Source: Macrostomum lignano
Lineage: Eukaryota
Direction of reading: 5' to 3'
Length of the DNA stretch: 64,000 bases
NCBI GenBank assembly: GCA_002269645.1
Contig: NIVC01000738.1
Coordinates: 310,001 to 374,000, forward strand
The translations under genes and the position numbers were made by a program. Within the stretch, counting starts at the first letter, position 1. Every line of letters starts with the position of its first letter. The notes beneath the pieces were generated by a model. That model saw only the letters and a list, made by a program, of their open reading frames with translations. It was not told where the DNA came from and made no database searches. Positions 9,576 to 48,238 of the stretch are shown here, one piece after another.

Positions 9576-11743
9576 TTATTCGCTGCCACCCGCCATGGCC
9601 AGCAGCGAAGGCAGAGTGTCGGGATCCAGGTTGCCTCCGGTGAGGACAACTCCAATGTGGCGCAGATGATCGGGCAGGCAGTCCGCTGCGGCGAACACTG
9701 CGGCGTGCAGAGCCGCGGCGCTGGCTGGCTCGATGACCTGACGGCACGGAGCGTTTGGGGCGACAGTCAGGGAGATTTTTTAGCCTTTCTTCATCCCCTC
9801 TCCTACAGGTGACTTGCGCTGCCCTTCTGTCCTGCTCTACCTTAAACAGACTCCTGACGCACCTGCTTCAGGTAGCGGAAGGCCAGGCGACAGCCCAGCG
9901 CCATTTCGGCGTCCGAGACAGACAGCACGTCGGGCTGGACGAGGTCGCAAAGCACCGGGAAGGTGAGCTCCCCCGCCGACTGCAGCCGCAGGCCATCTGC
10001 GATGGTCGTCAAGAAGGCGTCGGGGTTTGGCCATAGAGGTTGGCGGGCCGCCAGGCATTTGGCGAGGCCTTTACCGGCTGGCTCCACGCAGTGAACGCGG
10101 AGCTCCGGCTTCAGGTGGCGGCAGGCCACCGCGATGCCGCTGCTGAGGCCGCCGCCGCTGATGGGCACCTGCAGGTCAGGAAGGTCGGTGGCGGTATGTA
10201 GCCATTAGGCGCACTCAAAATATTTTGTTTATGGTTTACATCCTCTGAGAATGTTCCGGTCCGATAATTTGGCCTTGGACACTTTGTTCTGTTTCGGTTT
10301 CATGCTCAAAATCTGAAGTTTCCAACGTTTCCTGCGAGCTAGACATTGAATTTCGACGATAATAGTAGAAAAACAAAAAACATGCTTGTGTGCACCGATG
10401 GTTGTACATGCGGTAGCTATTAAACGTTTAAAGAAAATTTATGTAACTTTATGAGAATTGTATGTAAATTTTTGAGTCGCATATGCTGCGTATGTAAGTT
10501 GTACTCGTATGATATCTTAAATTCGTACGAATTGTTTCATTTCTCCAGAACAGTTCCCAGTTAAGATGAAACTACAATACACGAGTTCGTTACACGTAGG
10601 TACACGAAAATACGCCACAAAACTTGACTCATGCTAGGCATCTTGCTAGACTTTCGGTTGTACGAGTAGCATGAGGGCTTGGAGACAAAGTGATTCGGGT
10701 TGCTTGCACAAACGCGAAACTTCACACCCGCTAAATGTAACTTTAGTTGGTGATTTAGCTATTACGAAGTTTCGCTGTTGCAAAAGTAGATAACATTTAG
10801 AGGTTATGAAATTTCGCGTTTATGAAATCCCCCGCGGATGAGAGGGGAAGTATCTGGCCAGTTTGATGTGGCCACGAACACGGATTGCAACCCGGGCTAT
10901 CATGGAGCAAGAGTCAGAAGCGTCAATTGCTGAGCTGCGCTGGCTCGAGCACGAGAATTCGCCTGGCAACTCTCGCCTGAAAACCATGAGAAAATCGGGG
11001 CCGCCGTTGCTTTGATTTGTGGGAGTGCCTGAAGCCCCACTGCAGGTACAAGCTAACAAACAGAGCACCAGGGTCTTACCAAGACAGCGTCCAGCTCGGG
11101 CACCTGCTCCAGCAGCTCCAGGGCCACGGTGCCCTGCCCAGCCATCACGCGGTAGTCGTCAAACGGCGGCACCACAACAAGGCCGCGCTCCTCGGCCAGC
11201 CGAGCGCAAGCCTGGCGCCGGGCGCGCATATTCGGCTCGCAGAGGACCATCTCTGCTCCGTAGGCTCGGATGGCTGCCGTCTTGGCTGGCGAGGTGCCCT
11301 CGGGCACCACCACGCAGCAGGTGAGGCCGCATTCTCGGGCTGCCCAGGCCAGGGCTTAGTTAGGGATAAAGTTGAAATTTGTACGAGGAAAAACTTCCGC
11401 TTTGTAAAAGCCATTGGCAAATGAGCCGCACCTGCCCGTGGTTGCCGCTGCTGTGCGTCGCCACTCCAGCAGGCGTGGCGCGGCCGTTCTCCCGCGCCTC
11501 TTCCAGCAGGCACAGGACGGCGTTCAGCGCTCCGCGCGCCTTGAAGCTGCCAGTCCGCTGCAGGTGTTCGCACTTGAAATACAGCTGGCGCGATGACATG
11601 GCGTCCAGAATTCTGCTGGTCATCACCGGCGTGCGGTGCAGCCGGTCGCGCAGACGCTGCGCTGCAGAGGCGATTTTATCGAATGATATTTGCTTAGAAT
11701 GGTGGGGCGCTGCGGCCGCGGCTGTTGGAGTCGAGACCGACAT
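9576..11743 (-). CDS. SRR: Serine racemase / serine-threonine dehydratase (PLP fold II), 4 exons
   Basis: Exons 11743-11432, 11354-11080, 10168-9863 and 9737-9576. Motifs: FKCEHLQRTGSFKARGA (PLP lysine), HSSGNHGQ, PFDD..VMAGQGT, VPISGGGL, IADGL, GVVLTGGNLD. The exon 1/2 junction is one nt short as assembled. AATAAA overlaps the TAA stop. Confidence 0.9.
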
Positions 11744-12282
11744 CTTTGCATTGGTTTTATTGAATTCAGTTATTCAATCAATCCTGAGGTTCGTGAAAAC
11801 TGCTAAAAATTGGCTTTCGAAATCTCGTATGCTTTGTTGTGGCCCTCGCCATGCAGTATTCAACCCTAATCTCTCCCTTGCGAATGCTTATCTGACATTT
11901 TAGCAAGACACAGATGAACAGTTCCAAGCATTTACTTAGCGAATAGTCGAAGTGTACATATACAATCGTGCAGTCTATGCATGCACTGTACATGTGCATG
12001 CAATACCAGTGCACACTCCCTCTAACGAATAGGTTAAATACATGTCAGACAAGCTGTACGCTGTTTCCTCTGGCTACGTGACTGGCGCTTTTTTCTCTCA
12101 TTCTATTGTTCGGAAGACGATATTTTGACAGCTGTGACCTTTCACCCTTATAAGTATATTCGTTTTAATCCTAGTCACCTCATAGATAATCCCATCTCAC
12201 TCTCCTCTTCATCAAAAATCTAATGTACGAGTATATTTTCAGGTTAATTTTGAACCTGGCATCGCTGAAACTCATAAATCAT

Positions 12283-12800
12283 AGTAGTAGGAAAGTGGTA
12301 CCCTCTACCGCCATCGCACCGGATTGGCCGGGGCACCCGGCCAATGAGGGGAGAGGGCGCCCCGAAGACGCCCACCCCGACGCCAAACCCACCCCGACCC
12401 CCAAACCCACCCCGACCCCAAACCCACCACCGCCACGCACCCAATCCCGACCCCAAACCCACGCACCCACCCCCGACCCCAAACCAGGCCCCCTCCTGTC
12501 CTACACCCCTCCTGTCCTGCACCCCGTGCATCCCATACCAAGACCCCCTCCTGTCCTGCACCCCGTGCATCCCATACCAAGACCCCCTCCTGTCCTGCAC
12601 CCCGTGCATCCCATACCAAGACCCCCTCCTGTCCTGCACCCCGTGCATCCCATACCAAGACCCCCTCCTGTCCTGCACCCCATGCATCCCATACCAAGAC
12701 CCCCTCCTGTCCTACACCCCTCCTGTCCTGCACCCCGTGCATCCCATACCAAGACCCCCTCCTGTCCTGCACCCCATGCATCCCATACCAAGGCCCCCTC
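12283..12800 (+). repeat. Left terminal inverted repeat, including an expanded 39-bp tandem array at ~12490-12790
   Basis: agtagtaggaaagtggtaccctctaccgccatcgcaccggattggcc... matches the reverse complement of the region ending at 23319. The 39-bp unit is ccccctcctgtcctgcaccccgtgcatcccataccaaga. Confidence 0.92.
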
Positions 12801-13362
12801 CTATCCTACGCCTTGCCCCATCCCATGTAGCAAGGTCCTTCTATCCTGTACCCTAACCAAAACCAATTCCCCCCTCCTAATTCCTAAACCCAAGTCTTAT
12901 TACCTGTCTCACTTACCGCCTTTAAAGCTAGCCAAGGCAAAACCCTCATTCCATGCTTTGGTTGTACTGTATCTTGCTGTGGCGGGTACAGCGTGAGGTC
13001 GTTAGACCTAGAACGCTACTTCTTGGCGGCCAGAGGGCCGCAAGAAGGTCCCGCCACCTCCTGTTACGTTGATGGCTGAGACTTTGTTAAGGCCCGAGTT
13101 CCTGCGAAAGGGCTGCTGTGTGGGGGTTGGATTTGGGGTTCGGATTAGTTATTGCTATGGAACAGGAGCTGGTTTCTAAATGGCTGAGTGGTCCCCGGAA
13201 GGGCTCCTGATTTGCCGAGAGTTCCTGCGAGAGGGCTGTTGTGTGGGGTTGGATTCGGGGTTCGGATTGGTTATTGCTATGGAGCGGGAGCTGGTGTTAC
13301 TTACCAACTCTCGTCGTATATAATCTCGCACACAGCCGGAAGGAAAGCTCACAGTGAACAAA

Positions 13363-13800
13363 ATGAACTTCAAGACATTATCGAACAGATTTCGAATCGG
13401 CGTCAGGTCGCACTCGAAGTGCATCAGCATCAGAAAGTGGTACAAATTTGATGAAGAGTATCGACCAGGTCTGCCTGGCATGGAGCTCACCGTCCACCAG
13501 TTTTGCCACTTGGGCAGCCTGAAGGAACGACTGGAAGAGTTTGCAAGAAAGTGTATCGATGCGCAATGCCTTCTGGGTGGCAACAGGCAAGTGGTTGTGC
13601 AAAATGGCGTAATCACACTCTGGCGCCTTCCAACTGTACTCGGACCGCCGGTGCACCTAAGGCACGCCTTACCGCTTCCTACTACACTTTGGCGCGAAGT
13701 CTGGGCTCAAAAGCAATGGGTCCTAGACAAAATGACAAGCGAGAGCCTCCGGTCGAGCCACCGATCGGCGATCCATGGGATACCACCCTACGGAATCTGA
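13363..13800 (+). CDS. PC4/Sub1-like ssDNA-binding / coactivator-domain protein (Polinton-encoded)
   Basis: RIGVRSHSKCISIRKWYKFDEEYRPGLPGMELTVHQFCHL matches the PC4 pattern (V.V..F.G...IDIR.YY....PG.KGISL..EQW..L). A second, weaker repeat begins LGGNRQVVV. TATATAA lies at 13317-13323. Confidence 0.7.
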   Translation: MNFKTLSNRFRIGVRSHSKCISIRKWYKFDEEYRPGLPGMELTVHQFCHLGSLKERLEEFARKCIDAQCLLGGNRQVVVQNGVITLWRLPTVLGPPVHLRHALPLPTTLWREVWAQKQWVLDKMTSESLRSSHRSAIHGIPPYGI

Positions 13801-14048
13801 AGTGTTCAGCATGGGCAGCAAGGCTTACGCTCGACCAACTGATGCAAGTACCTGACAGGCAGTCGGCAGATTGGGACGACCACTGGGGGGCCTTCCAAGC
13901 AGTTCAGGCTGAATTTAGAAAGAGATTTACATTCGAAACTCTGGAAGAGCCACCAACAGCTGAGAAGAACCAACAGCCTTCATTCCACCAGCCACCAATG
14001 AAGCGACGCGCAATGCATGAAGCGACAACTGGTCATTTCGTCAATTAA
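13716..14048 (+). CDS. Hypothetical ~110-aa Polinton protein
   Basis: ATG-initiated ORF (MGPRQNDK...) overlapping the PC4-like ORF, with an AATAAA near 14212. No recognisable motif. Confidence 0.4.
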   Translation: MGPRQNDKREPPVEPPIGDPWDTTLRNLKCSAWAARLTLDQLMQVPDRQSADWDDHWGAFQAVQAEFRKRFTFETLEEPPTAEKNQQPSFHQPPMKRRAMHEATTGHFVN

Positions 14049-14483
14049 CTTTTTTTTAATATAGTTTTGAACCATAGTACTGATCATGCACTGTTGTATA
14101 TATTGCTTTGTCAATACTGGCCATAATATTGCCCCATCATGCTTTGATTCCGGGCGATAATACTGTTTTGTAAATACAGGCGACGGGCCTTAATACTGCC
14201 CTTCCATTCTTAATAAACTTTTTTGTGCTAATACGAGCTTTTAACATGTAATTTTATGCTTTGCAATCCATGGACCTGCCAATAAAATAAACAAAAAAAA
14301 CATTTCATTTTCGTAAGCATTGTTGTACAAACACTATTGTCGCATTCGCGTTTATTTTTTCTTATCTTTTGTACACAAAAAAAATACAGAAGTAAAGTTA
14401 CAGCAAAAATATTATTATTATTATTATTATTATTACTCGGTGCATAGGCAGATCTCACTACTACTGTTATGCCGTAGAGGAGC

Positions 14484-15083
14484 TCAGTCAGAGTCCAGCA
14501 AAGTAGGTTCGGATGCTTGATCTGGTAGCAAAATGCGGGAGAGGGCATCAGCTGCAGTCTGAGCCTCAACCACGCTGCGAGCACCAGCTATTATACAACG
14601 ATACGAATGAAACAAAATCAACTTTACAGAGGCAGTAAACTCGAGCACAAGTCCGTTAAACATTTCCGGCTCATAGGTGGCCCGATGCGGCCATTTAGAC
14701 TTGACTTCCCCCAACCGGAGTGGATGCCGACCCGCGGGAAAGGCCGTCACAGAGGTAATAGTCTTGATGCGAATCTGGGGCAGACTGGTCAATCGCAAGA
14801 AGTCCGCACACAGCTTCACAATCTTCTCCGTCTCTGCGAGAGCTTCCTCCATGCTTTTGGCTCCACAGACAGACACTTGTCCGGTCGGATACACCAGCGC
14901 GGTTACTCGATGCTGCCCGCTCTTCATCACCACTGCCAGTGTTCGAGGATGAACCAGGCGATGGCGGATTGTGTGATACTGAGGCAGATGAAGAGTCAGG
15001 AAATTCACTAGTTGAGGCAGACCCACCCGGGTCGCCAGGTCGGCTCCTGTCACGATGTTTGTCACGCGAATTGTTGCGACCAT
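14484..15083 (-). CDS. TATA-binding protein (TBP)-like protein, 199 aa, intact, inside the Polinton
   Basis: Two TBP repeats: RVTNIVTGADL...TALVYPTGQVSVCGAKSMEEA and IRIKTITS...ATYEPEMFNGLV...KLILFHSYRCIIAGARSVVEA. Compare canonical QNIV...TALIFASGKMVVTGAKS and YEPELFPGL...LIFVSGKIVLTGAK. Confidence 0.88.
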   Translation of the reverse strand: MVATIRVTNIVTGADLATRVGLPQLVNFLTLHLPQYHTIRHRLVHPRTLAVVMKSGQHRVTALVYPTGQVSVCGAKSMEEALAETEKIVKLCADFLRLTSLPQIRIKTITSVTAFPAGRHPLRLGEVKSKWPHRATYEPEMFNGLVLEFTASVKLILFHSYRCIIAGARSVVEAQTAADALSRILLPDQASEPTLLDSD

Positions 15084-15576
15084 CTTTAGACAATCGAGAG
15101 AAACGCCAGTGCCTGCTGCAGATCGCTACTTTTATAGACCCGTAGCCGCGAGGCCGCAGCCAATCAGCGTACAGCGCCACTTTGGCCAGGGCGCAGGGTA
15201 GCACGTACTTTGAGGCACTCGGAAAGGCTAGGTGTGCGAGGTCGTAGACAGGCTGCAGCAGCAGACGCGACAGGAACTGGCACTTGACATCCCCCTTGCT
15301 AAATATCGGGCCTTGCAAGTGAGAGATATCGCTCCAGAGACAAGAGTAGGGTCGGAACCCACTCCTGTCCCAGTCTAGACCGTGCCGCTTATTGGTGAGC
15401 CAGTAGCAGGTTCGTCGCTGTCCTCTATCAAAGAGCTCAAAGCTGTGCGGCGGCTGGTAGCAATAGTAATGAGCCGTCGTTTGACCGCATGCAAACTCAA
15501 CCCATGCAATTTCCTTAATCACAAAGTCCTCTGTTTTGTAGAGGTGCGGAAATCCTTCAAAATCAATGACAATCAT
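14695..15576 (-). CDS. DnaQ/DEDD-like nuclease-fold protein of Polintons; the real protein is probably the N-terminal ~140-150 aa
   Basis: MIVIDFEGF...FVIKEIA...H...PP...WLTNKRHGLDWD...FSKG..KC.FL. The C-terminal ~130 codons overlap the TBP-like gene out of frame and look like read-through. Confidence 0.6.
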   Translation of the reverse strand: MIVIDFEGFPHLYKTEDFVIKEIAWVEFACGQTTAHYYCYQPPHSFELFDRGQRRTCYWLTNKRHGLDWDRSGFRPYSCLWSDISHLQGPIFSKGDVKCQFLSRLLLQPVYDLAHLAFPSASKYVLPCALAKVALYADWLRPRGYGSIKVAICSRHWRFSRLSKDGRNNSRDKHRDRSRPGDPGGSASTSEFPDSSSASVSHNPPSPGSSSNTGSGDEERAASSNRAGVSDRTSVCLWSQKHGGSSRRDGEDCEAVCGLLAIDQSAPDSHQDYYLCDGLSRGSASTPVGGSQV

Positions 15577-16487
15577 CTTGGCCACTTGATCCACTTGCCG
15601 TATCCTTTCTGAGACTGAGTCTTCTTATAGCCTTGCAGTCGAGGTTTTTTAGGACTGGACTTTTCTTCCCGAGGCTTTTCCAGCAATTTTGTAGTGTTCA
15701 GACCAACTGCAGACAGAGGCACGTGGTTTTCTTGAAGACACGTAACAAACTCATTAATCCCATTCGGTGGCTGAAGGTACTTAGAGTACGTATCTTTAAC
15801 TATGAAATGCAGCAGGTCCACGATATTTGAGTTGTACAACGGTTTACCATTGACAGAAACTTCATACGTATCATCTATGCTAATCGACTTGCACTTTACG
15901 GTTATGAAGCTAATCAATGCCTGCAGACGATGATGCCATTTCTGATTCACCGTCAGATATAAAACCTCCTTCCACTGCGGTTCTTTGTGAATTACTGGAG
16001 GCTGTTCTTGGGTCGCACTTGCCTGCAGCTGCTGCACGCAACGCTCGTCCCTAATCTTGCGCAACTGTTTTTCCGCCTCTAGCTCGGGTTCACAGACTGT
16101 CTCCATGCCCCTCTGATTCACAAGTGCCTCATACTGCAACCGGGTACCAGTATCATTTCCTTGTACATGTCTTTTTATACAGGTGAGAATCAGAGGAAGA
16201 CAACGAAGGATATGCGGGTGTGAGAGATTACGCCGAGCCTCTTTCACACTTTTGCTTTGTGCAACAAGCCGGAGAGTATTTCGATATCGCCTGAGTCTCC
16301 GCTTCAAGCTATCTTCACAGCCAACTTTTCCTGCTAGTAAGTTGATAATACACTCGACCAAAAAGCAAATGGTGCTTTTATTTGCATAGGTAAGTATGCA
16401 GCGACGCAAGGATATAGTGCCCTCACAAAAGACAGTTATTAGTGCAATGTGTTTATCATGTTTAACTCAGTGCAGAGACTGAGCCAT
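15573..16487 (-). pseudogene. Two conserved Polinton ORFs, apparently fused by a 1-nt lesion, with an in-frame TGA
   Basis: ORF A reads MAQSLH*VKH...FLVECIINLLAGKVG...KRRLRRYRNTLRLVA, with TGA at 16469-16467. ORF B starts MYKEMILVP in another frame near 16150 and continues ...NGKPLYNSNIVDLLHF...PPNGINEFVTCLQENHVPLSAVG...KWIKW. Confidence 0.6.
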
Positions 16488-16489
16488 TC

Positions 16490-17147
16490 TTATAGATAAA
16501 CTCGCTGCGGGGCCTCATCGGGGAGAAAATTGGCTCTCAGGCGCAGTTCATGGCGTGAAGCGGGTGAAAATCAAGCAGCAGATAGCGCTGATCTCCATCT
16601 CGCACCAATCGATCCATCAGTTCTACTAGCAGAGTGCGCCGTTTGGGAAAGCATTGCTGACTTAAAGCTTGGACCGCAGAGGCGTCTCTGGGGTTGTTGA
16701 ACAACACCATGTAGGTGCAATTTATGCTAATTGTGCGCCACTCTCTGCCTTTGAAAAATAGATTTTGCGTGATGAGAATGACAAAGCAGGGCTTGTGGTG
16801 GGCCTCACGGGTGAACAGATGTCGTAGCTCTCGACTTGCAGCTGCTTCATCCAGTAAATCGTCAATCACAATCAGGTCATGGGGCTGCAGATCCAAATTC
16901 GATAATCCTTCACATACTTGCACTCCTAGCCGCCGCAGAGTCGCGTGGAGTTCCGGCTGCGGGCATCCGTGATACCAAATCATCCGCTTGGGAGGTTGGT
17001 CGAACAAAGCAGTCGTTGGGACAGCAACCGCAAACAGAATGTTGATTTTCCCGCTCGAGAAGGGCCCGAAACCATCATGCAGCCTCCCATCCGCAGTCTG
17101 GAATCAAACACCTTGCAACTGATTTTTGAGTCTGAGTATGATTGCAT
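16490..17147 (-). pseudogene. A32/FtsK-HerA-like DNA-packaging ATPase, frameshifted as assembled
   Basis: Walker A GPSRAGKST, then a frameshift near 17010, Walker B LIVIDDL, HH and TQN motifs and LFNNPRD. A second shift near 16550 precedes ELRLRANFLP. Confidence 0.9.
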
Positions 17148-17577
17148 CGTTTTGAGCCACAGCTGCCGGGTGCAAAACCTTGATGAACAAGGCATTATAT
17201 GACATTCTCTTATGCAGTCGATGGATCAAGTAAAAAATGCAATACCAGCCGCAAAGAGTTGACGAACTGGGCTGAACAGGGACCGTATTCCATTGTAGCA
17301 CCATCCGCGTCGGTTTAGTTTTCTTTAACCAGCTCTTCATATTTTTACTCAAGCCTCCCAAAGAGTTGAAAATTTCACAATGCACTTTACTGGTTACTAC
17401 TCCAGCAATCCAGTGACCGCACTCATCATTCCATGGCTCATACAAAATGAAGCAGCAGGGTCGGCAGGTTGAATCGAAAAATGGTGTCACTGTTCCAACT
17501 GTAAAATTTCCGCAATAGGCATCCCGCACAGATGTGGGGCAGCGAGAAATGAACGCTTCCAACTCTTCGGAATTCAT
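17104..17577 (-). CDS. Adenain-like (clan CE) cysteine protease, 157 aa
   Basis: GHW (His), FNSLG (normally FDSxG), VQ (oxyanion Gln) and CGWYC (Cys). Confidence 0.88.
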   Translation of the reverse strand: MNSEELEAFISRCPTSVRDAYCGNFTVGTVTPFFDSTCRPCCFILYEPWNDECGHWIAGVVTSKVHCEIFNSLGGLSKNMKSWLKKTKPTRMVLQWNTVPVQPSSSTLCGWYCIFYLIHRLHKRMSYNALFIKVLHPAAVAQNDAIILRLKNQLQGV

Positions 17578-18844
17578 GCTCTGCGATAATCCAGCAGCAC
17601 ATCCCTCTCTTTAGTGATTTCCATGCATGAATCATACACGCACAAGCAGATGAGTGTGACTGGCTGTGCGAGAGCGTTGGAAAAGCGAATATCCAGTCGT
17701 AGTTGACCCTGCCTATGACCAAACCAGCTGCCTACTTCATCGCCACTTGGACTAAGGTCAAACGCAAGCAGATAGGCACTATTTCGAAATTCATCAAAGC
17801 TTATGCAATATTTTCCACTGAGACTGCGGGCAAACTGCAAAAATTCGGATGAGGGCTGCTGCTGTGGTTCTATGGGCTGCCCAGTAATTGGCTCTCCATT
17901 GACAAACAGGCTTAAACTATTCAACCAAATGCTTGGAACCAAAACGGGTTGTGGTGCAGAGATCCATTGAAAGCAGTCTGGCTGACCATTCCAAGGAGCA
18001 CAAATTTTGGCAGCTGACCATGCGTGATTGAATCGAGACTCTTGTTTCTTGTCCCAACAGAAAATGTGAATGTCTGAAGCTCTCTTCTATCAAAGTGGTA
18101 GAGAGCATTACGCTGTGAGAGCCCCTGTTCATGTGCGAGAGCCACTGTTGGGTTTACTCGGAGACGCCTCAAAAGCAGAATAGCATTGTCGACTTCAACA
18201 CGGTATTGAACTCCATTATTGGGTACCATCAACGAAAAAGCGCTGCAGTGCCGGGTCAATTTGACCTGCAGGCTGATTTGGTTTAGCAGATACTGCCGGA
18301 TTGAGAAAATGTCTGAAAACAACGGGCCGGCATATTGCACAACAGCAGAAGCCTCATGCAATCTCGCACGATTTGTGAATCCATGATTTTGCTCCCCAAT
18401 GGTGTCACTCTCTCCAGCGGTGTCTGGATAATAACCTGCGGCCGCCAGTTCTTGAAGCTGGTTGGCATTGCTGCTGGTCAGCACTTGAAGCATTGCTCGA
18501 TATGGGTAGAGCTGGTCCCCACCACTCACAACCCGCTGGTTGAGTTTTACAGTGACATCACGAAACAGGCTGGCAAGCGGGAGATTCGATAGTCCGACAT
18601 GGGCATCATCTTCATTAGTCAGCTCTGCATTGTTTATCACACGAGTTATCCGGCAAGTGACTTGCAGCACTGTGGCGTGCAGATCGGTGTAGTCCTCAGA
18701 GGAGGCGTGGCAGTCGAATTCAATCGGTGCATCAGGAGTCGTGAGACTGCCGATGGGATGAAAGTCCGTGAAGTGAGACCTATCCACTCCAATTTCATGC
18801 GTCATTGGCTCAAACAGATTGAGCCGTGGATTTGTCCGATACAT
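17574..18844 (-). CDS. Polinton major capsid protein (double jelly-roll, PY/hexon-like), one frameshift near 17925
   Basis: LNLF...PIEF....DYTDLHATVLQV...SLFRDVTVKLN...YPYRAML...NPFWFQAFG, then in the adjacent frame LNSLSLFVNG...AFDLSP...G.LRLDIRFSNAL...VTLI....YDS.MEITKERDVLLDY. Confidence 0.88.
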
Positions 18845-19107
18845 TATGAGAGTGAATCGAGCACTCGGTTGACTGTTTTTAACGGTATCTTGCGCTTTTT
18901 TGTGGGCACTGGCTTGCTCTTCTTTGGTTTGATTTTTGGCGTTTTCTTATGTTTTTTCTGCGATGGAGGTGGTATGCGGGAAAGGAGAACTGCATTTTCA
19001 TGAGTCTCAGGGGGCAGTCGAGATAGCAGCGATGTGGGATATCCGTGCCCATGAGGAAGTTTGAAGCAACTGCCTCGATAAAACTCGGTCACTTGTCGAA
19101 TGTCCAT
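18844..19107 (-). CDS. Small basic virion-core-like protein, 87 aa
   Basis: FYRG...HGHG N-terminus and a Lys/Pro-rich tail. It lies between the minor and major capsid genes, and its stop overlaps the MCP ATG (TAATG). Confidence 0.6.
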   Translation of the reverse strand: MDIRQVTEFYRGSCFKLPHGHGYPTSLLSRLPPETHENAVLLSRIPPPSQKKHKKTPKIKPKKSKPVPTKKRKIPLKTVNRVLDSLS

Positions 19108-19871
19108 GACTCACGCAGCTCAAAAGTCAAGACTGTGGGTCCAAAGAGTAATCGGATAGATTCGATACAGTTGATCGGTCGTAGCCGTATTTGCATGTGT
19201 GTTAAGCGGTGGTTTGCTGCTATTGGGAAGAATAGCTTATTCTTATAGATGAGTTCCGACCGGTGATCCTGCAAAAGACCACCAATATTCAAAGTCTGCA
19301 GTGCTGGAGTAAACTGATTTCCAATACAGCGCGGGCTAATCTGATCGCACTCAACAAGCAGCAAATCCGTATTCCAGGCCGGGTTCATGCCAGGTCGTTC
19401 AAAGCATCCTGCCTGCTCGCTATAGGTTGTCTGCGCAGCACCAAAGATTTTCCCCATCTGGCTGTTTTCTGGAAACATAAATCTCTCACAGATCCCAGCC
19501 ATTTGATAGTATACATAATGGCTAACTGAATCAAGGGTAAATTTAATTAGATGCACATTTATAGGTGTTTCGCCAATTCCAGACTCATCAAAATCTTTTA
19601 CAATCAGTAAAGCATTTACTGCATCAATCAGCTCATTCAAGTCATTGTAGCGCCCAGCTGGAATTTCAGCACATTGCATTGAACCCTCAAGCTGATAATA
19701 TAGCGACAATGGATGAGGGATCGTGTAGATGCAGTTGATAAAACTGATTCCAAGCAGACCCAACTCATAGTCCAAAGCAGAATCCAGCAGCACAGGATGC
19801 AGCAGCTCAGCAGTAAAGTTGGCCGGGTCATCATCGGGGCCGGACATTACCTGAAATCTTTGCCTTTTCAT
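19089..19871 (-). CDS. Polinton minor capsid protein (penton/PX-like), 260 aa
   Basis: N-terminal ..NFTAEL..PVLLD...YELGL.GISF pattern and C-terminal FFPI...LTHMQIRL...T.LTFELR. Its position after the integrase fits this call. Confidence 0.75.
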   Translation of the reverse strand: MKRQRFQVMSGPDDDPANFTAELLHPVLLDSALDYELGLLGISFINCIYTIPHPLSLYYQLEGSMQCAEIPAGRYNDLNELIDAVNALLIVKDFDESGIGETPINVHLIKFTLDSVSHYVYYQMAGICERFMFPENSQMGKIFGAAQTTYSEQAGCFERPGMNPAWNTDLLLVECDQISPRCIGNQFTPALQTLNIGGLLQDHRSELIYKNKLFFPIAANHRLTHMQIRLRPINCIESIRLLFGPTVLTFELRESWTFDK

Positions 19872-21086
19872 ATTTTTCTTAAGTCTTTTTCGTCAATCCA
19901 ACTGGGTTTTTCTGAATCGCGCCACTGAACCAAATACCGAATCTTTCCACTCTTCAGCTTCTTAATGTTGAGAACCTTGTCGATGATCCACAGCTTCTTG
20001 TTTCCTGTCACTTGCTGCATTTCCGGCTCGTAAAACTTGCCTTCCAACTCTTCACCTCGGGCATCGATCAGAGTGTACATGTATGGATAATGCTTGGGGT
20101 GGAGGGACTTGACTTCAAATACTTCCTCACTCCATCCCCTTGTGTATCCCTTGGTGAATGGGTTGGCCAGATTGCGAAGAGAGATTCGCACCATCATTCC
20201 TGCCTTGAACTTTGGTCTGGAGACCTTTTCACGAGTCTCAGGAAGCTTCCCATCGTAAAGCCGGTGCCAAATTTCCATCTCGTTTGACTTGTCGACATCA
20301 ACTGGTCGGCTTTGAATACTCCGATGAATACTCTGGTTGTATGCCTTTGCTAAGGGTTGAAGCACATCGGTCCAGGTTAATGTTGACTTGTGACGGAAGT
20401 ACCGCCACATTCGGGATTTCAGTGTGCGGTTCCATCTCTCAATGACTGCGCATTTCTGGTCACTACTTGATGTGAATGCATGAATTTTGTGGTTTACGCA
20501 GAAGGCTCGGAACTGGGTGTTACAAAACTCTTTTCCACGGTCGGTCCGAACTGCTCGTGGGCATCGAGGGTGAGCTCGATTTAGGATCGCTTCGAATCCG
20601 GCTGCAACCTCCTCGGCTGTCTTGCGGCGCACCGGCTGAGCCCAGGCAAACTTGCTGAGCACATCAATGCAGCATAAAATATATCGTACGCCGCCATTGT
20701 ACTTGGCAAACGGTAGCATTTCAACCAGGTCCAGTTCCCACTGGTCATCCATGCCCCGCACCACAATCGGTGCTCGACGAAAGTTTTTGCGTTTATCTCT
20801 ATGCAGTGTGTAGACATCTTGGTCTTGGAGCCACGTTTTTACCTTTAATTGTAAAAACTGGAAATTGCTAGCTAGTGGATAAAACTAAAAACCTAAGCTG
20901 GAATTTTCTAAAAAATCATTGGTTTAGAAGTATATCGTATATACATACCTGCCCTACACTAAACTTGGGTCCGTGCTGTTTGTGCAACTCTCGTTTTAAT
21001 GCCTGATAGCCGCCATAGCTGCCCGGTCTACTGCAGTCAAAATAAATACCTGGCAGAAGGTTTGAAATTGCCTTTTTCTTTTTCAT
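19868..21086 (-). CDS. Retroviral-like (rve) DDE integrase with C-terminal chromodomain-like region, 2 exons, 370 aa
   Basis: Exon 1 is 21086-20949 (MKKKK...YFDCSRPGSYGG...Q), the intron is 20948-20843 (GTATGT...TTAAAG), and exon 2 is 20842-19868. Exon 2 motifs: VKTWLQDQDVYTLH, WELDLVEM, IDVLSKFAW, RTDRGKEF, IERWNRTLK, YNQSIHRSI, YLVQW. Confidence 0.93.
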
Positions 21087-21197
21087 TTTACCAAATTTCT
21101 AGTACCTATCATTTTCTTATGCCAAACACCTGCTTGAAAAAAAAAATAACTGCCCACCCCCACCAGTTTCTGCGGATTTAGCGTTTCTAGCCTCTGT

Positions 21198-21510
21198 TGT
21201 GCACGAAAAAGCATGCATGTTTGCACAAAATACATACATTTCAATGGGAATTTTTACCCGAATGTGTGCACAAAAAACCTCAACACTTTGCATACTTTTT
21301 AACACTGTGCACGAAAACTTGCATACTTGTGCACAAAATACATGTATTTCAATAGGGATTTGTACCCGAACCTGTGCATGAAAATTGACGCATTTTGTCG
21401 AAAAATTCACGCCGTATTGCATACTTTTAATCACTGGACGAAAACTTGCATACTTGTGGATAAAATACATACATTTCAATGGGGATTTTACCCCAGAGCT
21501 GTGCACAAAA
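21198..21510. repeat. Three degenerate ~108-129 bp direct repeats upstream of the integrase
   Basis: Copies start at 21198, 21306 and 21435 and share tg(t)gcacgaaaa...aaaatacat..atttcaat.gg.attt.tacc. Confidence 0.7.
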
Positions 21511-21702
21511 AATGACTAATTATAGCAAAAATATTTTTGTGAAAGAGCATTTTTCTCTATTTCTGCGTATTAAATATCATAGAGTAAAGCTTGTATTTAT
21601 TATTATTCAAAATATAGTATGTTCGTATTAAATTTACATGCATATAGTTGTTTTAAATCAGATATTTACAAAGAAAAAAAAATTTGTGGGAAAAAGAGCT
21701 TG

Positions 21703-22472
21703 CTAGTGTCCTGACAGATCGCACTGGCCGATATACACTAGCCTGTCGAGCACAACATTCGTCTTGAGAATGTGCACTAGAGCTAAATCCCCGTTGAAAA
21801 TCATCTGATCGCGGAACGTCGGCTTGGCCACAGGCTTCCCTGCTGAATAAACCAGCACGTAGTCCACTTGCTTGCGAACATACTCGATGGTCTACAGGGA
21901 GTTGTTTAGCAGCTTGTTGCAGTCTTTCTTGAACTCATTCTTGGCCTTTTGCACGACGCTCTATGCGGTAGATAATAACTTACGGTTGACACGTCAACAC
22001 ACCGAGTGGTCCTGATTACCCAGCCACTGCCATTGCGTAGTTACTTCTCTATCCGGTTGATGATAGTCTGCATGTCGTCAGAGAAGTAGTACTCCTCCTC
22101 ACTCTGGAGAAGAGAGTGGACCTTGGCAGCAAACCAGGCAGTGTTCTCGGCGGCGCAGCTACCATTAATGATGCGCTGCATCAGGACCCCGAGGCGCAGC
22201 TGAACTTTGATGGCGGTTCCTGGCTCACGTTGATGCTGGGTGATCAAGTCAATGAAAGCTTGACGAGTGTTTTCCAAAACATTCATCGGGTCGCCGCATG
22301 CACTGGCCCGGTAAAGTTGGGACCTGCCATTAAACGCCTCCTTGATCAGTTGAAAATGAATCGCTGGGGAGTCATCTGACTCAAACAGTGCTGGTATCGC
22401 AGGACATACCGCATAGTGCTCCTCAATGCCCCCGATTACTGATGACTCGCAAAAGTCGCAAGTTATTTGCAT
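21703..22472 (-). pseudogene. Protein-primed DNA polymerase B remnant (internally deleted, with nonsense codons)
   Basis: The N-terminal region (CDFC...H...C; KVQLRL...IEK*LRNGSGW) is joined within about 100 nt to motif B (KDCNKLLNNSL*TIEYVRKQVD...AKPTF...IF...KTNVVLDRLVYIGQCDLS). Exonuclease, motif A and motif C are absent. Confidence 0.85.
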
Positions 22473-22532
22473 TTTCGTTGTATTTTTAATTTAATCTAAA
22501 ATAAATAAAAAATCTATGGGGCCGAGGTGCTT

Positions 22533-22700
22533 TATTTATAAAGGGTACTGGAGCCCTTCTCCCGCAGGGTCCAAACCAAATCGTTCATCAGGGACCTCTC
22601 GACCAATAGAATCCATTCTCCACATTTTACTCGGAAATCACTTCAAATGCTTGCTCGACCAATAGAATCCCTTCCCCTCTCTACTCGGAAATTCCAAGCA
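22533..22700 (-). promoter_or_regulatory. Putative PolB promoter: TATAAATA plus duplicated CCAAT-containing 56-bp repeat
   Basis: TATAAATA lies at 22540-22533, about 60 nt before the ATG at 22472. ctcgaccaatagaatcc...tactcggaaat occurs at 22598 and 22654. Confidence 0.45.
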
Positions 22701-22953
22701 ATCAGACCCTCTACCCGTTAAGATCACATTGAAACTCTGTCTTGCGTATCACCACATGCGGTAGAGGATACTCAACTATGGACACTCATTCACATCTCAA
22801 AACTCACCCTTGAACACTCACTTAACTCACCCTTGGACACTCACCCAGACACTCAGCTGCCCAACCCCTCATCTGGCCTGCTCGACCGGCTTGCCCGACC
22901 GGCTTGCCCGACCCCAACCTGGGCTTGCCCGACCCCCTTCTCCGGCCTCCGGT

Positions 22954-23319
22954 ATGGGATGGTGTGCTGGACAGGAAGGGGCCTTGGTATGGGATGGGGT
23001 GCAGGACAGGAGGGGGCCCGGTTTGGGGTCGGAGGTAGGTGCGGCGGTGGTGGGTTTGGGGTCGGGTGGGCGTCTTTGGGGGCCCGGTTTGGGGTCGGGG
23101 TGGGTGCGTGGCGGTGGTGGGTTTGGCCGGGGTCGGGGTGGGTTTGGGGGTCGGGATTGGGTGCGTGGCGGTGGTGGGTTTGGGTCGGGGTGGGTTTGGG
23201 GGTCGGGGTGGGTTTGGCGTCGGGGTGGGCGTTTTTTGGGGGCGCCGTCTCTCCTCATTGGCCGGGTGCCCCGGCCAATCCGGTGCGATGGCGGTAGAGG
23301 GTACCACTTTCCTACTACT
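22954..23319 (-). repeat. Right terminal inverted repeat
   Basis: Reverse complement of the left end, differing in the copy number of internal subrepeats. Confidence 0.92.
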
Positions 23320-23906
23320 AATCATATTTTATCAAAATGGGATGATTTATGGCCACACCTGTCACTTTTCGAGGGTTCTCCGGGGCTTTCAGGTTCAGGT
23401 AGCATCAGTCGATCAGCGAATCAGAAAAATCAGTTGGTGTAATCAGAATTGAAGTATTTCAAAAATCGCCGGGCCAGTTGGTTCCCAATTTGGACCGCTG
23501 ATTTTTCCTGCCTGGAACCAAACCTTTCACTCCGTTCGGCGGGGATCTCTGCTTTCCCCGCGACGCATTTCAGTTCGTTGAGCAACCCTGAGGGACCGTC
23601 TGAGTGAACATCCTCTCCAACTGCCGACTTTCTTTCCCCCGGTTTCAGCGCCGCCCCTCATCGAGCGAAATCGAGTCAGAAGACGCCATCTTCGATGTCA
23701 ACTGCCACAGCTTCATCGAGAGTCGGCCGTCCCTGAGCTACGACTCGGGTGAGAGGCTAATTGAACCTGCTTGGTTGAGAGGACTGTTTATATCTGGCCC
23801 CGTTTCAATAGTTTGATTGGGTGTTGCACTTTACTTGTTTGCTTTTCACGTGCTGAACTTTTCGAGGCAGAAATCCAGCGTTAAATGCTAAGAGCCTAAT
23901 AAAGCA

Positions 23907-24124: not shown

Positions 24125-24874
24125 TATAGTATTTTGCAGCCCATTTGGGCTTATGCGCATTTAATTTAATCCAAGATACGTTTGCCAATGTAACAGAGCT
24201 TTTGTCTATGGTAGCAAGGCTGGCGCAGCGGCATTTAATTTGGTCCAAAAAGCATCCATTTGGTCCAAACACTCGTGAGCCATTGGACAAACTCTTGCCT
24301 TCTCTCAACCGTCTGCAGGTTGTTGCGCACCGCTAGAATGTCAGCGTCTCTACCAGCAGTTTTCAGTTGCTTTTCCAGAGCTCTGCTGATAGTCGAAATC
24401 TGATAACCAACTGGAGCTGTTCCCTCAATTTCTGCTGCATTTCGGCAACGTCAACAAAGGGTTCGTCTCCACTGCATCGAGTAGCAGTTGGACCTGAGGC
24501 TCTCGAGCAACTTTCCTTGGCGATTGCCACCCTTTCGCACGCAATCTCTGCCGGCAGAGTTTCAACGCGCTGCTGGATGCTGTAAACCACCTTTTCTTTT
24601 ACATTCAGCAACCTTGCAATGTCCTTTGGGTGTTCACCTCCGTCGAGTGCTTCGATCACAAGCCAATGACATTCGTTCAATAGCCTAGCATATGGTCCAC
24701 AATTCTGGGACTGAGCTGCAAATGAACTAAATGGACCAAATTGATGCTTGTCGGACCAAATCAAATGCCGCTGCGCCAGCCTTGCTACCATAGACAAAAG
24801 CTCCGTTACTTTGACAAACAAATCTTGGATTAAATTCGATGTGCGTAAGCCCAAATGGGCTGAAAAAAGCTATA
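24125..24874 (-). mobile_element. Tc1/mariner-type deletion derivative with ~140-bp TIRs
   Basis: Inverted repeats at ~24125-24266 and ~24727-24874. The interior encodes an HTH-like transposase N-terminus (GEHPKDIARLLNVKEKVVYSIQQR...DEPF...EMQQKL). Confidence 0.7.
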
Positions 24875-32024: not shown

Positions 32025-35000
32025 CTCGGCCACCAATTCCGCTGTGTCGTCCGCCTCATCAGCGTCAGCGGCATCCTCAGCGTCCAGCTCGGCAGCGCCG
32101 GGAGCTGCAATGTCTCCGGCTGGCCACCTCCAGGACAGCCAAGCTCAGCTGGCTCATCTCAGCGGCCGCCTGAACTTCGAAGACGGTCTGGACCTCGCCT
32201 GCCAGGCCTCTGATCTGCGCGTCGACCGCGAACTCGGCCAGGGCGTCTGCGGCGTCGTCTCCATGGCGACGCATCTGCCGACCGGCCGGCGCCTGGCCAT
32301 CAAGGCGATGCGGCTGCACCTGGCCGTCGGCGCGGACTGCAGCAGCGGGGAGGAGCGCCGGCGCGTCCTGAACGACCTGGAGGTGGCCGGAAAGTGCCGC
32401 GACTGCCCGCACATCGTGCAGTTCTACGGCGCCGTGCTGTGCCAGTCGGAGGTGTGGGTCTGCATGGAGCTCATGGCCACCTGTCTGGACCGTCTGCTGC
32501 GCTGCTGCGGCAACCGCGGCCTGTCCGAGCCCGTGCTGGGCAAGCTGGTGGTGCCGGTGCTGCGGGCGCTGCACTATCTCAAGGAGCGGCACAACCTCAT
32601 CCACCGCGATGTGAAGCCGTCCAATGTGCTGCTCAGCTGGCGGGGACAGGTGCGCTGCTAGTCTCAATAGTCTCATTCTCAATCCCAGCTCTCAGATTCT
32701 AAATCCCATCTCTCAGATTCTAAATCCCAGCTCTCAGATTCTAAATCCCAGCTCTCAGATTCTAAATCCCATCTCTCAGGTTCTAAATCCCAGCTCTCAG
32801 ATTCTAAATCCCAGCTCTCAGATTCTAAATCCCAGCTCTCAGATTCTAAATCCCATCTCTCAGATTCTAAATCCCAGCTCTCAGATTCTAAATCCCAGCT
32901 CTCAGATTCTAAATCCCATCTCTCAGGTTCTAAATCCCAGCTCTCAGATTCTAAATCCCAGCTCTCAGATTCTAAATCCCATCTCTCAGGTTCTAAATCC
33001 CAGCTCTCAGATTCTAAATCCCATCTCTCAGATTCTAAATCCCAGCTCTCAGATTCTAAATCCCATCTCTCAGGTTCTAAATCCCAGCTCTCAGATTCTA
33101 AATCCCAGCTCTCAGATTCTAAATCCCATCTCTCAGGTTCTAAATCCCAGCTCTCAGATTCTAAATCCCAGCTCTCAGATTCTAAATCCCATCTCTCAGA
33201 TTCTAAATCCCAGCTCTCAGATTCTAAATCCCAGCTCTCAGATTCTAAATCCCATCTCTCAGGTTCTAAATCCCAGCTCTCAGATTCTAAATCCCAGCTC
33301 TCAGATTCTAAATCCCATCTCTCAGGTTCTAAATCCCAGCTCTCAGATTCTAAATCCCATCTCTCAGATTCTAAATCCCAGCTCTCAGATTCTAAATCCC
33401 ATCTCTCAGGTTCTAAATCCCAGCTCTCAGATTCTAAATCCCAGCTCTCAGATTCTAAATCCCATCTCTCAGGTTCTAAATCCCAGCTCTCAGATTCTAA
33501 ATCCCATCTCTCAGATTCTAAATCCCAGCTCTCAGATTCTAAATCCCAGCTCTCATATTCTAAATCCCATCTCTTAGATTCTAAATCCCAGCTCTCAGAT
33601 AATAAATCCCAGCTCTCAGGTTCTAAATCCCATATTTTAGATCCTGAGTCTCAGATCCCAAATTAAAGCTGTCATTCTCTTGATTTTCAAAATCCTTGTC
33701 CACGTATACCAAATCCCAGTTCTGTTGTCTCTGCTCCCAGCAGCACGATATCAAGCAGACTAGAAATGCTCAGAGTTCAACTCCATCGCCTGCTAACCGC
33801 CTCCAGGTGAAGCTGTGCGACTTCGGCATCAGCGGCCAGCTGGTGAACTCGAAGGCGCACACCCGCACAGCCGGCTGCATCGCCTACTTGGCGCCCGAGC
33901 GCATCACCCTCAGCTCAGCCTACGACATCCGCTCCGACGTTTGGTCGCTTGGCGTGACCCTGGTGGAGCTGGCGACCGGCCGCCACCCGCTGGCTGGCTG
34001 CTCCTGCGAGATGGAGCTGCTGACCCGCATTGTGGACGACCCGCCGCCTCAGCTGCCCCGCCTGGCCGCCGGCTGCACTTTTAGCGACCACTTCCGCGAC
34101 TTTGTCACTAAGTGGTGCGTTCGAGACCGCCGGCTTAGGGGAGGGGAGGTGGCTCGGTAGGAGTGTCTGTTACAGTGGCTGGAAGTGTCTGTTACAGTGG
34201 CTGGGAGTGTCTGTTGCAGTGGCTGGGAGTGTCTGTTACAGTGGCTGGGAGTGTCTGTTGCAGTGGCTGGGAGTGTCTGTTACAGTGGCTGGAAGTGTCT
34301 GTTACAGTGGCTGGGAGTGTCTGTTGCAGTGGCTGGAAGTGTCTGTTACAGTGGCTGGGAGTGTCTGTTGCAGTGGCTGGGAGTGTCTGTTGCAGTGGCT
34401 GGGAGTGTCTGTTACAGTGGCTGGGAGTGTCTGTTGCAGTGGCTGGGAGTGTCTGTTGCAGTGGCTGGGAGTGTCTGTTGCAGTGGCTGGGAGTGTCTGT
34501 TACAGTGGCTGGGAGTGTCTGTTGCAGTGGCTGGGAGTGTCTGTTGCAGTGGCTGGGAGTGTCTGTTACAGTGGCTGGGAGTGTCTGTTGCAGTGGCTGG
34601 GAGTGTCTGTTGCAGTGGCTGGGAGTGTCTGTTGCAGTGGCTGGGAGTGTCTGTTGCAGTGGCTGGGAGTGTCTGTTACAGTGGCTGGGAGTGTCTGTTA
34701 CAGTGGCTGGGAGTGTCTGTTACAGTGGCTGGGAGTGTCTGTTACAGTGGCTGGGAGTGTCTGTTGCAGTGGCTGGGAGTGTCTGTTGCAGTGGCTGGGA
34801 GTGTCTGTTGCAGTGGCTGGGAGTGTCTGTTGCAGTGGCTGGGAGTGTCTGTTGCAGTGGCTGGGAGTGTCTGTTACAGTGGCTGGGAGTGTCTGTTGCA
34901 GTGGCTGGGAGTGTCTGTTGCAGTGGCTGGGAGTGTCTGTTACAGTGGCTGGGAGTGTCTGTTACAGTGGCTGGGAGTGTCTGTTACAGTGGCTGGGAGT

Positions 35001-46501: not shown

Positions 46502-46845
46502 GGGCCGGCTCTTGCACGCGTACTCTCGCTCGACTATGATAATCGGGCGCTGCTGTGAACTTCATCGTCAAAAAGCACTCGCTCATCTTGTTGTAGACAG
46601 TAATTACCGTTTCTCAGCTTGCATTGCAAGCATTGCACTTACTTTCATGAATTCTCTCTACTTTTAGCTCGTAATATTGGCATCTGATCGTTCGCGTGTT
46701 CGATTTATATTCGAAATTATTGGGGATTATTGGGGGTCTATTTTAGGCACAGGTCAGATAAAGAGTGTTTTCGTTCTACTGGAGTTGAAGTTCGTGAATA
46801 CTTTGCGATCCAACTTTCACGCTGGCCAACATAATAGAATCCCCT

Positions 46846-48238
46846 TCAGTGGAATCCCAGTCAGTGGAATCCCATTCAGTGGAATCCCATTCAGTGGAAT
46901 CCCATTCAGTAGAATCCCAGTCAGTAGAATCCCAGTCAGTAGAATCCCAGTCAGTAGAATCCCAGTCAGTAGAATCCCAGTCAGTAGAATCCCAGTCAGT
47001 AGAATCCCAGTCAGTAGAATCCCAGTCAGTAGAATCCCAGTCAGTAGAATCCCAATCAGTAGAATCCCATTCAGTAGAATCCCAGTCAGTAGAATCCCAA
47101 TCAGTAGAATCCCAGTCAGTGGAATCCCAGTCAGTGGAATCCCATTCAGTGGAATCCCATTCAGTGGAATCCCATTCAGTAGAATCCCAGTCAGTAGAAT
47201 CCCAGTCAGTAGAATCCCAGTCAGTAGAATCCCAGTCAGTAGAATCTCAGTCAGTAGAATCCCAGTCAGTAGAATCCCATTCAGTGGAATCCCAGTCAGT
47301 AGAATCCCAGTCAGTAGAATCCCAGTCAGTAGAATCCCAGTCAGTAGAATCCCAGTCAGTAGAATCCCAGTCAGTAGAATCCCAGTCAGTAGAATCCCAT
47401 TCAGTGGAATCCCATTCAGTGGAATCCCATTCAGTAGAATCCCAGTCAGTAGAATCCCAGTCAGTAGAATCCCAGTCAGTAGAATCCCAGTCAGTAGAAT
47501 CCCAGTCAGTAGAATCCCAGTCAGTAGAATCCCAGTCAGTAGAATCCCAGTCAGTAGAATCCCAGTCAGTAGAATCCCAGTCAGTAGAATCCCAGTCAGT
47601 AGAATCCCAGTCAGTAGAATCCCAGTCAGTAGAATCCCAGTCAGTAGAATCCCAGTCAGTAGAATCCCAGTCAGTAGAATCCCAGTCAGTGGAATCCCAG
47701 TCAGTGGAATCCCATTCAGTGGAATCCCATTCAGTGGAATCCCATTCAGTAGAATCCCAGTCAGTAGAATCCCAGTCAGTAGAATCCCAGTCAGTAGAAT
47801 CCCAGTCAGTAGAATCCCAGTCAGTAGAATCCCAGTCAGTAGAATCCCAGTCAGTAGAATCCCAGTCAGTAGAATCCCAGTCAGTGGAATCCCAGTCAGT
47901 GGAATCCCATTCAGTGGAATCCCATTCAGTGGAATCCCATTCAGTAGAATCCCAGTCAGTAGAATCCCAGTCAGTAGAATCCCAGTCAGTAGAATCCCAG
48001 TCAGTAGAATCCCAGTCAGTAGAATCCCAGTCAGTAGAATCCCAGTCAGTAGAATCCCAGTCAGTAGAATCCCATTCAGTGGAATCCCAGTCAGTAGAAT
48101 CCCAGTCAGTAGAATCCCAGTCAGTAGAATCCCAGTCAGTAGAATCCCAGTCAGTAGAATCCCAGTCAGTAGAATCCCAGTCAGTAGAATCCCAGTCAGT
48201 AGAATCCCAGTCAGTAGAATCCCAGTCAGTAGAATCCC
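46846..48238. repeat. 15-bp minisatellite, ~1.4 kb
   Basis: Unit agt(a/g)gaatccca(g/t)tc. Confidence 0.96.

Follow-up and report, generated by a model that had tools for sequence, protein, structure and literature searches.

The window, a stretch of 64,000 nucleotides from Macrostomum lignano, carries a PolB-deleted Polinton of 11,037 bp at 12283-23319 (Table 1). The element begins and ends with AGTAGT...ACTACT (12283 and 23319), which includes the AG...CT termini of Polintons/Mavericks, and it is flanked on both sides by AATCAT, a 6-bp target site duplication (TSD) as in that group. An empty site is found on contigs C4952 and C716, where AATCAT occurs once, the element is absent and the host locus is 92% alike. 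The initial annotation, which was made from the letters of the window, was thus correct in calling the termini and TSD perfect. Within the terminal inverted repeats (TIRs), the outer ~190 bp alone match well (94%). The element lies ~540 bp upstream of the start of a host PLP-dependent enzyme gene (first exon at 11360-11743 on the minus strand; Pfam PALP), which we take to be serine racemase/dehydratase-like, and is absent from two other contigs of the locus.

Table 1. Features of the PolB-deleted Polinton and its insertion site (window coordinates)
Feature	Coordinates	Strand	Remarks
Left TSD AATCAT	12277..12282		single copy at empty site (C4952 / C716)
Whole PolB-deleted Polinton	12283..23319		11,037 bp
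Left TIR, outer part	12283..12473	+	94% to 23129-23319; terminus exactly that of PolB-bearing sisters (type B)
PC4-like ORF	13363..13800	+	145 aa (most sisters: 213-236 aa); Pfam PC4 E 2.6e-5, narrowly below cut-off
TBP-like ORF, two TBP repeats	14484..15083	-	199 aa, open; Pfam TBP E 5.6e-19
293-aa ORF	14695..15576	-	~390 nt overlap with TBP-like gene in another frame; Pfam: no match
ORF without assigned role	15573..16106	-	177 aa here, 198 aa in most sisters
Putative packaging-type ATPase	16537..17195	-	two pieces here; Walker A in sequence; weak AAA Pfam matches below cut-off in a sister
Putative cysteine protease (PRO)	17104..17577	-	157 aa, open; Pfam Peptidase_C48 E 0.0085, below cut-off
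Putative major capsid gene	17577..18844	-	one frame change here; ORF stops at 307 aa
Small basic ORF	18844..19107	-	87 aa; Pfam: no match
Putative minor capsid (mCP)	19089..19871	-	260 aa, open; named by position only; Pfam: no match
Retroviral-like integrase (INT)	19868..20752	-	294 aa, open; Pfam rve E 6.4e-14; weak C-terminal Chromo E 0.024
GT-AG intron candidate in integrase gene	20843..20948	-	106 nt; 95-112 nt in other copies
Type-A cassette	21490..22940		left edge ~21489, where sisters turn to their own PolB arm; right edge ~22900-22951
Second deletion junction	21676..21696		removed PolB C-terminus with motif C
Motif-B remnant	21715..21957	-	aa 950-1032 of sister PolB; frame differs from TP ORF; stop 21894-21892
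First deletion junction	21958..21961		4-nt microhomology; TP/vOTU boundary
TP domain of PolB	21962..22472	-	143-aa ORF here, stop 22043-22041; 187-aa ORF in older copies
Type-B right terminal region with right TIR	22951..23319	-	type-B sequence outward from 22951
Right TSD AATCAT	23320..23325		equals left TSD

The integrase, minor capsid, protease and TBP-like ORFs are open, as had been annotated; the PC4-like ORF, which had also been listed as intact, is shorter here than in most sisters. In the virion module that was described as kept, the major capsid and ATPase genes are frameshifted in this copy, a point that the initial annotation had not mentioned. Compared with an open sister, they differ by one and two single-base gaps, respectively, which may be assembly errors. 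Private single-base gaps are common in all copies and many of them are probably errors of this kind. Among the 18 sister stretches listed, the ATPase is open (235 aa) in eight and the major capsid ORF reaches 423 aa in three. The major capsid gave no match in Pfam and PDB sequence searches, and scored 0.98 in the Atlas to clusters in which 15-30% of members carry PF21738 (DJR-like). The sequence motifs of the ATPase and protease presumably fit a packaging ATPase and a cysteine protease, and the 293-aa ORF begins with what we take to be a DEDD-exonuclease-like motif. TBP-like and PC4-like genes also occur in an old type-A relic (85% and 42-61%, respectively); a literature search for TBP in Polintons gave no paper. 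The integrase gene probably has an upstream 5' exon, and the segment 20843-20948 is probably a spliceosomal intron, judging from its GT-AG boundaries, both of which are conserved at 14 of the 16 loci compared. At this position an unrelated Polinton (locus L058) apparently reads through without an intron, and vertebrate Mavericks are described as intronless (PMC8097293).

PolB itself survives as two pieces. The remnant ORF (22472-22041, minus strand) encodes 143 aa and ends in IEK followed by a stop (22043-22041), and a further stop lies at 21894-21892. When compared with the PolB of a reference sister on contig C254, which is open (1236 aa) and matches Pfam DNA_pol_B_2, window positions 22460-21963 correspond to aa 4-166 and 21948-21715 to aa 950-1032. 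No other part of the sister PolB is matched in the window, which means that the vOTU domain and the exonuclease are missing, as are motif A (aa ~788) and motif C (aa ~1063). The initial annotation had reported the lack of a full PolB ORF, an N-terminus fused to motif B and the same two stops, all of which are confirmed in the sequence. It had placed the junction at ~21960-21990; the first junction lies at the low edge of that range (21958-21961), and a second deletion (21676-21696), which it had not included, removed the C-terminus too. Between the termini there is no ORF for a substitute replicase (helicase or other polymerase), and the longest ORFs are structural genes. With PolB reduced to two pieces, the element lacks the protein-primed family B polymerase with exonuclease and motifs A, B and C that characterizes Polintons/Mavericks, and is therefore a Polinton derivative and not an autonomous member.

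A search of the genome with the remnant returned 36 matches, which is a lower bound, comprising 27 unsplit (deleted) matches, eight halves and one rearranged deleted copy. The eight halves lie on four contigs, with ~1.74 kb extra between the halves, and represent one relic site. The first junction is the same in the 17 of the 21 closest loci at which its letters were read (one has a single-base change) and occurs also in older relics, and the other four of the closest loci align to the remnant without a split. Deleted copies with type-B termini account for 21 contigs' worth of matches at 17 sites. In this count, C2126 and C5126 are one site; C1769 shares a flank with C1131, with five of six TSD bases matching; C3493 and C2079 show one end each and carry an identical hexamer; and for C3259 only the near end was read. 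An exact 6-bp TSD is present on 13 of the 16 other deleted contigs with both ends and, together with the window, this gives 14 exact TSDs, all different. Fourteen different TSDs around one common deletion indicate that the family inserted many times after PolB was lost, and we consider it very probable that it spread in this state. The TP part of the remnant is 0.4-0.8% distant from the window at five other young sites and up to 5.7% distant elsewhere, so that these insertions are spread over a long span. It had been proposed that the element integrated after losing PolB and that other copies should carry the same junction at different sites with different TSDs. The copies bear this out: the deletion is not unique to the locus and was inherited at 17 sites.

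The terminal 24-mer of the element has 56 exact matches in the genome (none for the reversed control) and also ends nine PolB-bearing contigs. Exact or nearly exact type-B ends bound PolB-bearing elements on 11 contigs, representing eight sites. From the left end to ~21489 these sisters share 96-99% identity with the window; there they turn to a PolB arm of their own, and most have a TIR of ~1.05 kb. Their PolB, for which the nearest named protein is a UniRef entry labelled Macrostomum lignano, is full length at five of the eight sites and fully open at one; its shared variants (N21:S54, omega 0.15) reveal purifying selection. The whole element measures 14.3 kb when PolB-bearing and 11.0 kb when deleted, and there are 17 deleted sites compared with five with a full-length PolB. 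The earlier suggestion of a satellite that depends on a helper's polymerase gains support from these sisters, which carry the same termini in the same genome, and we regard them as the likely source of the polymerase, which the deleted copies would borrow.

No PolB-bearing copy with every ORF open was found in the assembly. The copy with the fully open PolB (C254:490287-506966, the same site as C1157:94458-106155) lacks the minor capsid, major capsid and protease genes and is a mirror of the PolB-less copies; three other PolB-bearing copies have the whole gene set and one to nine small gaps in PolB. The idea that all PolB-bearing sisters are autonomous was rejected: C110 has an internal PolB deletion, C291/C2385 and C1330/C414 lack the C-terminus, and autonomy is also ruled out for C254/C1157 and C1863 by missing structural genes. 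The deletion on C110 (295700-308567) is a second, independent type-B PolB deletion at one site, in frame, and it begins immediately past the GSGW motif. The genome also has over ten further Polinton PolB groups with open frames (1200-1415 aa, some with more than 20 identical matches), indicating recent, large expansions, and these groups could help in principle. Isolated type-B termini of ~55-70 bp with no element behind them occur at C3:403017, C236:500659, C2213:40130 and C84:306353, with flanks common to three.

Deleted and PolB-bearing copies exchange sequence. In trees of the backbone, deleted copies do not form one clade in the left, middle or right block (AU p = 2e-79, 1.6e-4 and 6e-9, respectively), and the deleted/PolB label changes as many times as with shuffled labels. 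The trees held one contig per recognised site (C5126, C1157, C2385, C414 and C2079 were omitted) and rows lacking a segment were left out of that block, giving 15 deleted versus six PolB-bearing rows on the left, ten versus six in the middle and 11 versus five on the right. The interleaving of the two kinds of copies in these trees implies recombination between them. Across 94 informative sites in 14 copies, 31% of neighboring pairs are incompatible compared with 44% overall (permutation p = 0.001). In six young copies the arms are within 0.8% of each other and the left blocks are up to 4.4% apart, and for each of them the nearest PolB-bearing copy or group is a different one. Where one site was assembled as separate contigs, these differ at 7-14 positions in 4-6 kb in four of five pairs, compared with 1-4% between sites, which speaks against polishing noise as the source of the mosaics; the fifth pair has 53 differences in 3.6 kb.

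Selection was gauged from 17 deleted and eight PolB-bearing rows (kappa 3.0, multi-hit codons omitted). In the virion/integrase module, variants found in both deleted and PolB-bearing copies show purifying selection (N33:S62, omega 0.21), those confined to deleted copies have N18:S11 (omega 0.66, p = 0.18; difference from shared, p = 0.01), and private variants are neutral (N96:S40, omega 0.96). Purification of the module is thus seen only in variants shared with PolB-bearing copies. Selection for the capsid and integrase genes within the deleted lineage is unsupported; at these small counts there may be weak selection on the module.

The module is also not needed in cis. Contig C460, which has an exact TSD, and C1131/C1769 have a further deletion in common (19121-20506) that took the integrase core and the minor capsid gene. 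Three deleted insertions with exact TSDs (C1016, C592 and C862) are inverted duplications, each with a pair of like arms; in C1016, of 4.3 kb, two deleted arms stand head to head without integrase core, capsid or polymerase. Exact TSDs in copies lacking the integrase core and minor capsid, or every gene, indicate that the module can be supplied in trans. That the virion/integration module was kept, as the initial annotation said, is therefore no sign of a need for it in cis. The module is probably renewed by recombination, and keeping it may bring a benefit of size or expression.

The arm that stands in place of the type-B PolB stems from another family. The remnant terminal protein (TP-A) is 46% identical to the TP of the candidate helpers (TP-B) at the protein level, and its TP part is ~9% apart in DNA from the relic with the split matches, so the helpers' PolB belongs to another lineage and is not the remnant's parent. 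The four split matches were rejected as a full-length parent: all come from a single decayed site, present on four contigs, which has different termini (type A), TE insertions and an internal loss of about aa 220-430 in its own PolB. At a second relic site (four contigs) both deletions occur together with a type-A end, and at a third (two contigs, C317/C16) the first deletion is present alone, with the C-terminus kept and no end seen. Type-A ends adjoin relics of the remnant lineage at two relic sites only, and the other type-A ends (37 matches, 30 loci read) have only relics within 1.5 kb. The window arm agrees with type-A relics between ~21490 and 22936, and beyond 22951, towards the terminus, with type-B sequence. 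AT-rich imperfect repeats of ~128 bp occupy 21180-21520, between the 3' ends of integrase and PolB, and the arm switch falls inside them. An intact PolB-A was not found in the assembly by searches that are lower bounds (next best matches: 66-73% for the middle part, 48-52% for TP), nor was an intermediate combining ends of both types; we therefore infer the order of events, and the TP-part tree cannot be rooted reliably. In the simplest order, the first deletion would be followed by the second and then by entry of the cassette into the type-B family.

We hypothesize the following mechanism. In an older family with type-A termini and PolB-A, a microhomology deletion would have run from the TP end to just before motif B, and a second deletion would have taken the PolB C-terminus. 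A 1.4-kb cassette would then have recombined into a related type-B family in place of the PolB arm, by which the deleted lineage gained type-B termini. Protein-primed polymerases work from their own terminal origins, and a deleted genome would consequently need the ends of its helper. Separate protein-primed replication systems are described in PMC13348850. That the lineage changed helper in this manner seems somewhat more credible to us than the contrary. In a cell where a PolB-bearing sister is active, the sister's TP-polymerase would prime on the shared termini and copy the deleted linear DNA, and an integrase, its own or the helper's, would insert the product with a 6-bp TSD. Copying in the same cell would also mix backbones, so that the deleted copies would hold fresh capsid and integrase genes without being selected for them. 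Taken as a whole, the element is likely a copy of a non-autonomous Polinton subfamily that acts as a defective, helper-dependent genome.

The retained TP piece could suggest another cause of this success, namely that the deletion made a working TP mini-gene, serving as a cis primer or as an inhibitor of the helper. Polinton pPolB has the order TP-vOTU-exonuclease-palm, with a Ser or Tyr between TP helix 2 and strand 4, and the best structural matches of the TP domain are Y-family little fingers (PMC11161782). The predicted fold of the 187-aa ORF of an older copy (18 aligned rows, pLDDT 81.8) is that of a whole TP, with a PRD1-like topology of a four-stranded sheet and two helices. Its top matches are Pol eta (Z 8.9, rmsd 3.0 over 107) and Pol IV (4IR1; Z 8.2, rmsd 2.8 over 97), and ten of the first 12 rows are Y-family polymerases, the same top class as in PMC11161782. 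At the sequence level the piece matches an adintovirus protein (E 2.7e-9); Pfam and Atlas gave no match and a profile search gave eight weak matches. The last TP strand ends four residues before the junction, and the vOTU Cys and His lie beyond it (sister aa 197 and 297). Shared variants in TP-A (N17:S13, omega 0.50, one-sided p = 0.045 uncorrected) come with no shared indel in 495 nt, compared with N13:S3 and four shared gaps in 249 nt of the motif-B scrap.

These contrasts are nevertheless weak (TP versus motif-B scrap, p = 0.12; shared versus private, p = 0.16; neither significant), and selection on the TP-A piece would be weak at best, going by substitution counts. The helper TP has an omega of 0.17. 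Ser149, which is invariant in the 18 aligned rows and falls, in the model, within the loop joining helix 2 to strand 4, is the predicted priming residue in older copies; the window ORF stops five codons before it. Such a stop precedes the Ser in six of 16 copies, the youngest and closest group, which includes the window; the motif surrounding the Ser is altered in three further copies, and another copy stops earlier. TP-A is, moreover, just 46% identical to TP-B, and the linker after TP is a place where a chance deletion also spares a domain. The mini-gene may once have been functional and is now dispensable and decaying. Both a working mini-gene in older copies and its role as the cause of the lineage's success seem rather doubtful to us; this reading adds to the helper explanation without excluding it. 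A broader scenario is offered tentatively, as possible but speculative: the satellite, a TP-only defective genome with a selected mini-gene, outlived its first helper, acquired its present backbone and termini from another family and has come to outnumber that second helper as a defective interfering partner within one recombining pool, with capsid-less PolB copies and PolB-less capsid copies complementing each other like the segments of a bipartite virus.

A simpler proposal dispenses with the helper's polymerase. The integrase would move the elements by cut and paste, host repair or replication would raise the copy number, and the sisters would only donate DNA by recombination. The integrase ORF is open in most copies, and TIRs with 6-bp TSDs are sufficient for an integrase. 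Against this, the exact TSDs of copies without an integrase core show that help in trans occurs anyway, the inverted duplications C1016, C592 and C862 would be expected from template switching in a replicating linear molecule, and the thorough mixing of backbones fits side-by-side copying. We consider movement by integrase alone improbable.

The recombination between copies, which is real, might instead have spread the deletion itself: full-length elements would have inserted first and the deleted cassette would then have passed among integrated copies by ectopic gene conversion through the shared flanks, which are 95-99% (near 21489) and 77-94% (terminus) homologous. Of the 16 deleted-site TSDs that were read, however, none equals any of the eight PolB-site TSDs, and all five pairs of contigs from the same site agree in their state. 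About 17 one-way conversions would be required and the second-order deletion is common to two unrelated sites, which makes conversion very improbable as compared with copying by a helper. Decay after insertion at this locus, segmental duplication of one decayed copy or collapse of the assembly, for which the many private single-base gaps and the presence of some sites on two or four contigs might speak, has a negligible chance of accounting for 14 different exact TSDs with unrelated flanks and an empty site, and a contig from an independent public run covers 20715-22088 with both deletion junctions (seven differing letters, no gap), while one contig of a second run bridges the first junction.

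The element shares with Polintons/Mavericks, of which the animal group is the adintoviruses, the AG...CT ends, TIRs, 6-bp TSD and rve integrase, has a putative ATPase, cysteine protease and double-jelly-roll-like capsid as further points of likeness, and differs from the usual members in its TBP-like and PC4-like genes and its probable integrase intron. Non-autonomous Polintons are reportedly listed in the founding 2006 Polinton paper and in Repbase, so the class is not new. The sisters' PolB, with Pfam DNA_pol_B_2, has the domain order given in PMC11161782. The usual size is stated as 15-25 kb (PMC6431247), compared with 11 kb here, and a working pPolB, a defining gene, is missing. Polintons of Pieris mannii lacking polB, and polintons with polB replaced by a Gypsy element, are described as apparently mobile in the Pannagram preprint (10.1101/2025.02.07.637071), whose authors ask how polB-less polintons are mobilised; in the openly accessible papers and preprint main texts searched, this was the one prior report of polB-less mobile polintons found. 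As here, polB was lost, the other genes and TIRs were kept and close polB-bearing sisters are present in the species. Section 13 of that preprint deals with two copies and one further group, with TE cargo, and has no TSD series, helper analysis or recombination test. In M. lignano, by comparison, there are 17 sites and one dated junction, the remnant comprises TP only, the candidate helpers belong to another PolB lineage and there is a change of termini. Within the same scope of literature, no TSD-proven series with an other-lineage helper, changed termini, a TP-only remnant or such recombination was found.

Nematode Polintons swap the pPolB arm as a module, with the remainder >90% alike (Jeong et al., 10.1101/2023.08.22.554363). 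In that description a working polymerase replaces another, whereas the cassette that took the place of a working one here is dead and has spread nonetheless. Tlr1/PLVs with TP-vOTU-palm-helicase fusions also have capsid and integrase without a canonical pPolB (PMC11161782, PMC4028283) but are described as encoding a substitute replication protein, of which this element has none; the opposite loss, that of capsid genes, is noted in PMC4028283. A stand-alone TP ORF likewise occurs in Stylophora Polintons, where TP is split off as its own gene (PMC11161782), and in adenovirus pTP; in both accounts the polymerase gene remains beside TP, whereas here it is gone and the TP ORF is decaying. Helper-dependent linear plasmids of yeast, as described in PMC13348850, are also linear DNA with terminal origins that needs a helper. 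Like defective genomes, the element is shorter than its candidate helper (11.0 versus 14.3 kb) and more numerous (17 versus five full-PolB sites); unlike yeast plasmids and defective interfering genomes, it integrates and keeps most structural genes. Defective interfering virus genomes offer a further analogue of helper dependence in linear DNA with terminal origins.

The self-copying of Polintons is not known to have been watched directly, and the mobilization of polB-less polintons was left open in the butterfly report. The genetics of the M. lignano family support trans action of the polymerase, the integrase and the capsid, a cis requirement for the termini, and encounters between copies that lead to recombination. 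There is a warning in this family as well. Open capsid genes with low dN/dS are often read as proof of particle formation (PMC8097293), and they can sit in copies that merely borrow them by recombination. As M. lignano is a free-living flatworm, young insertions, episomes and expression are observable in it.

Elsewhere in the window, inverted repeats of 328 bp (99% complementary, 574 bp apart) at 54518-55747 are probably a young non-autonomous DNA transposon, and a 142-aa ORF with weak helix-turn-helix matches (24363-24791, minus strand) is probably a transposase fragment. A protein kinase exon at 32110-32661 (plus strand), which we take to be MAP2K-like, is followed by long minisatellites of 21, 22 and 15 bp (32528-33580, 34028-35500 and 46700-48400).
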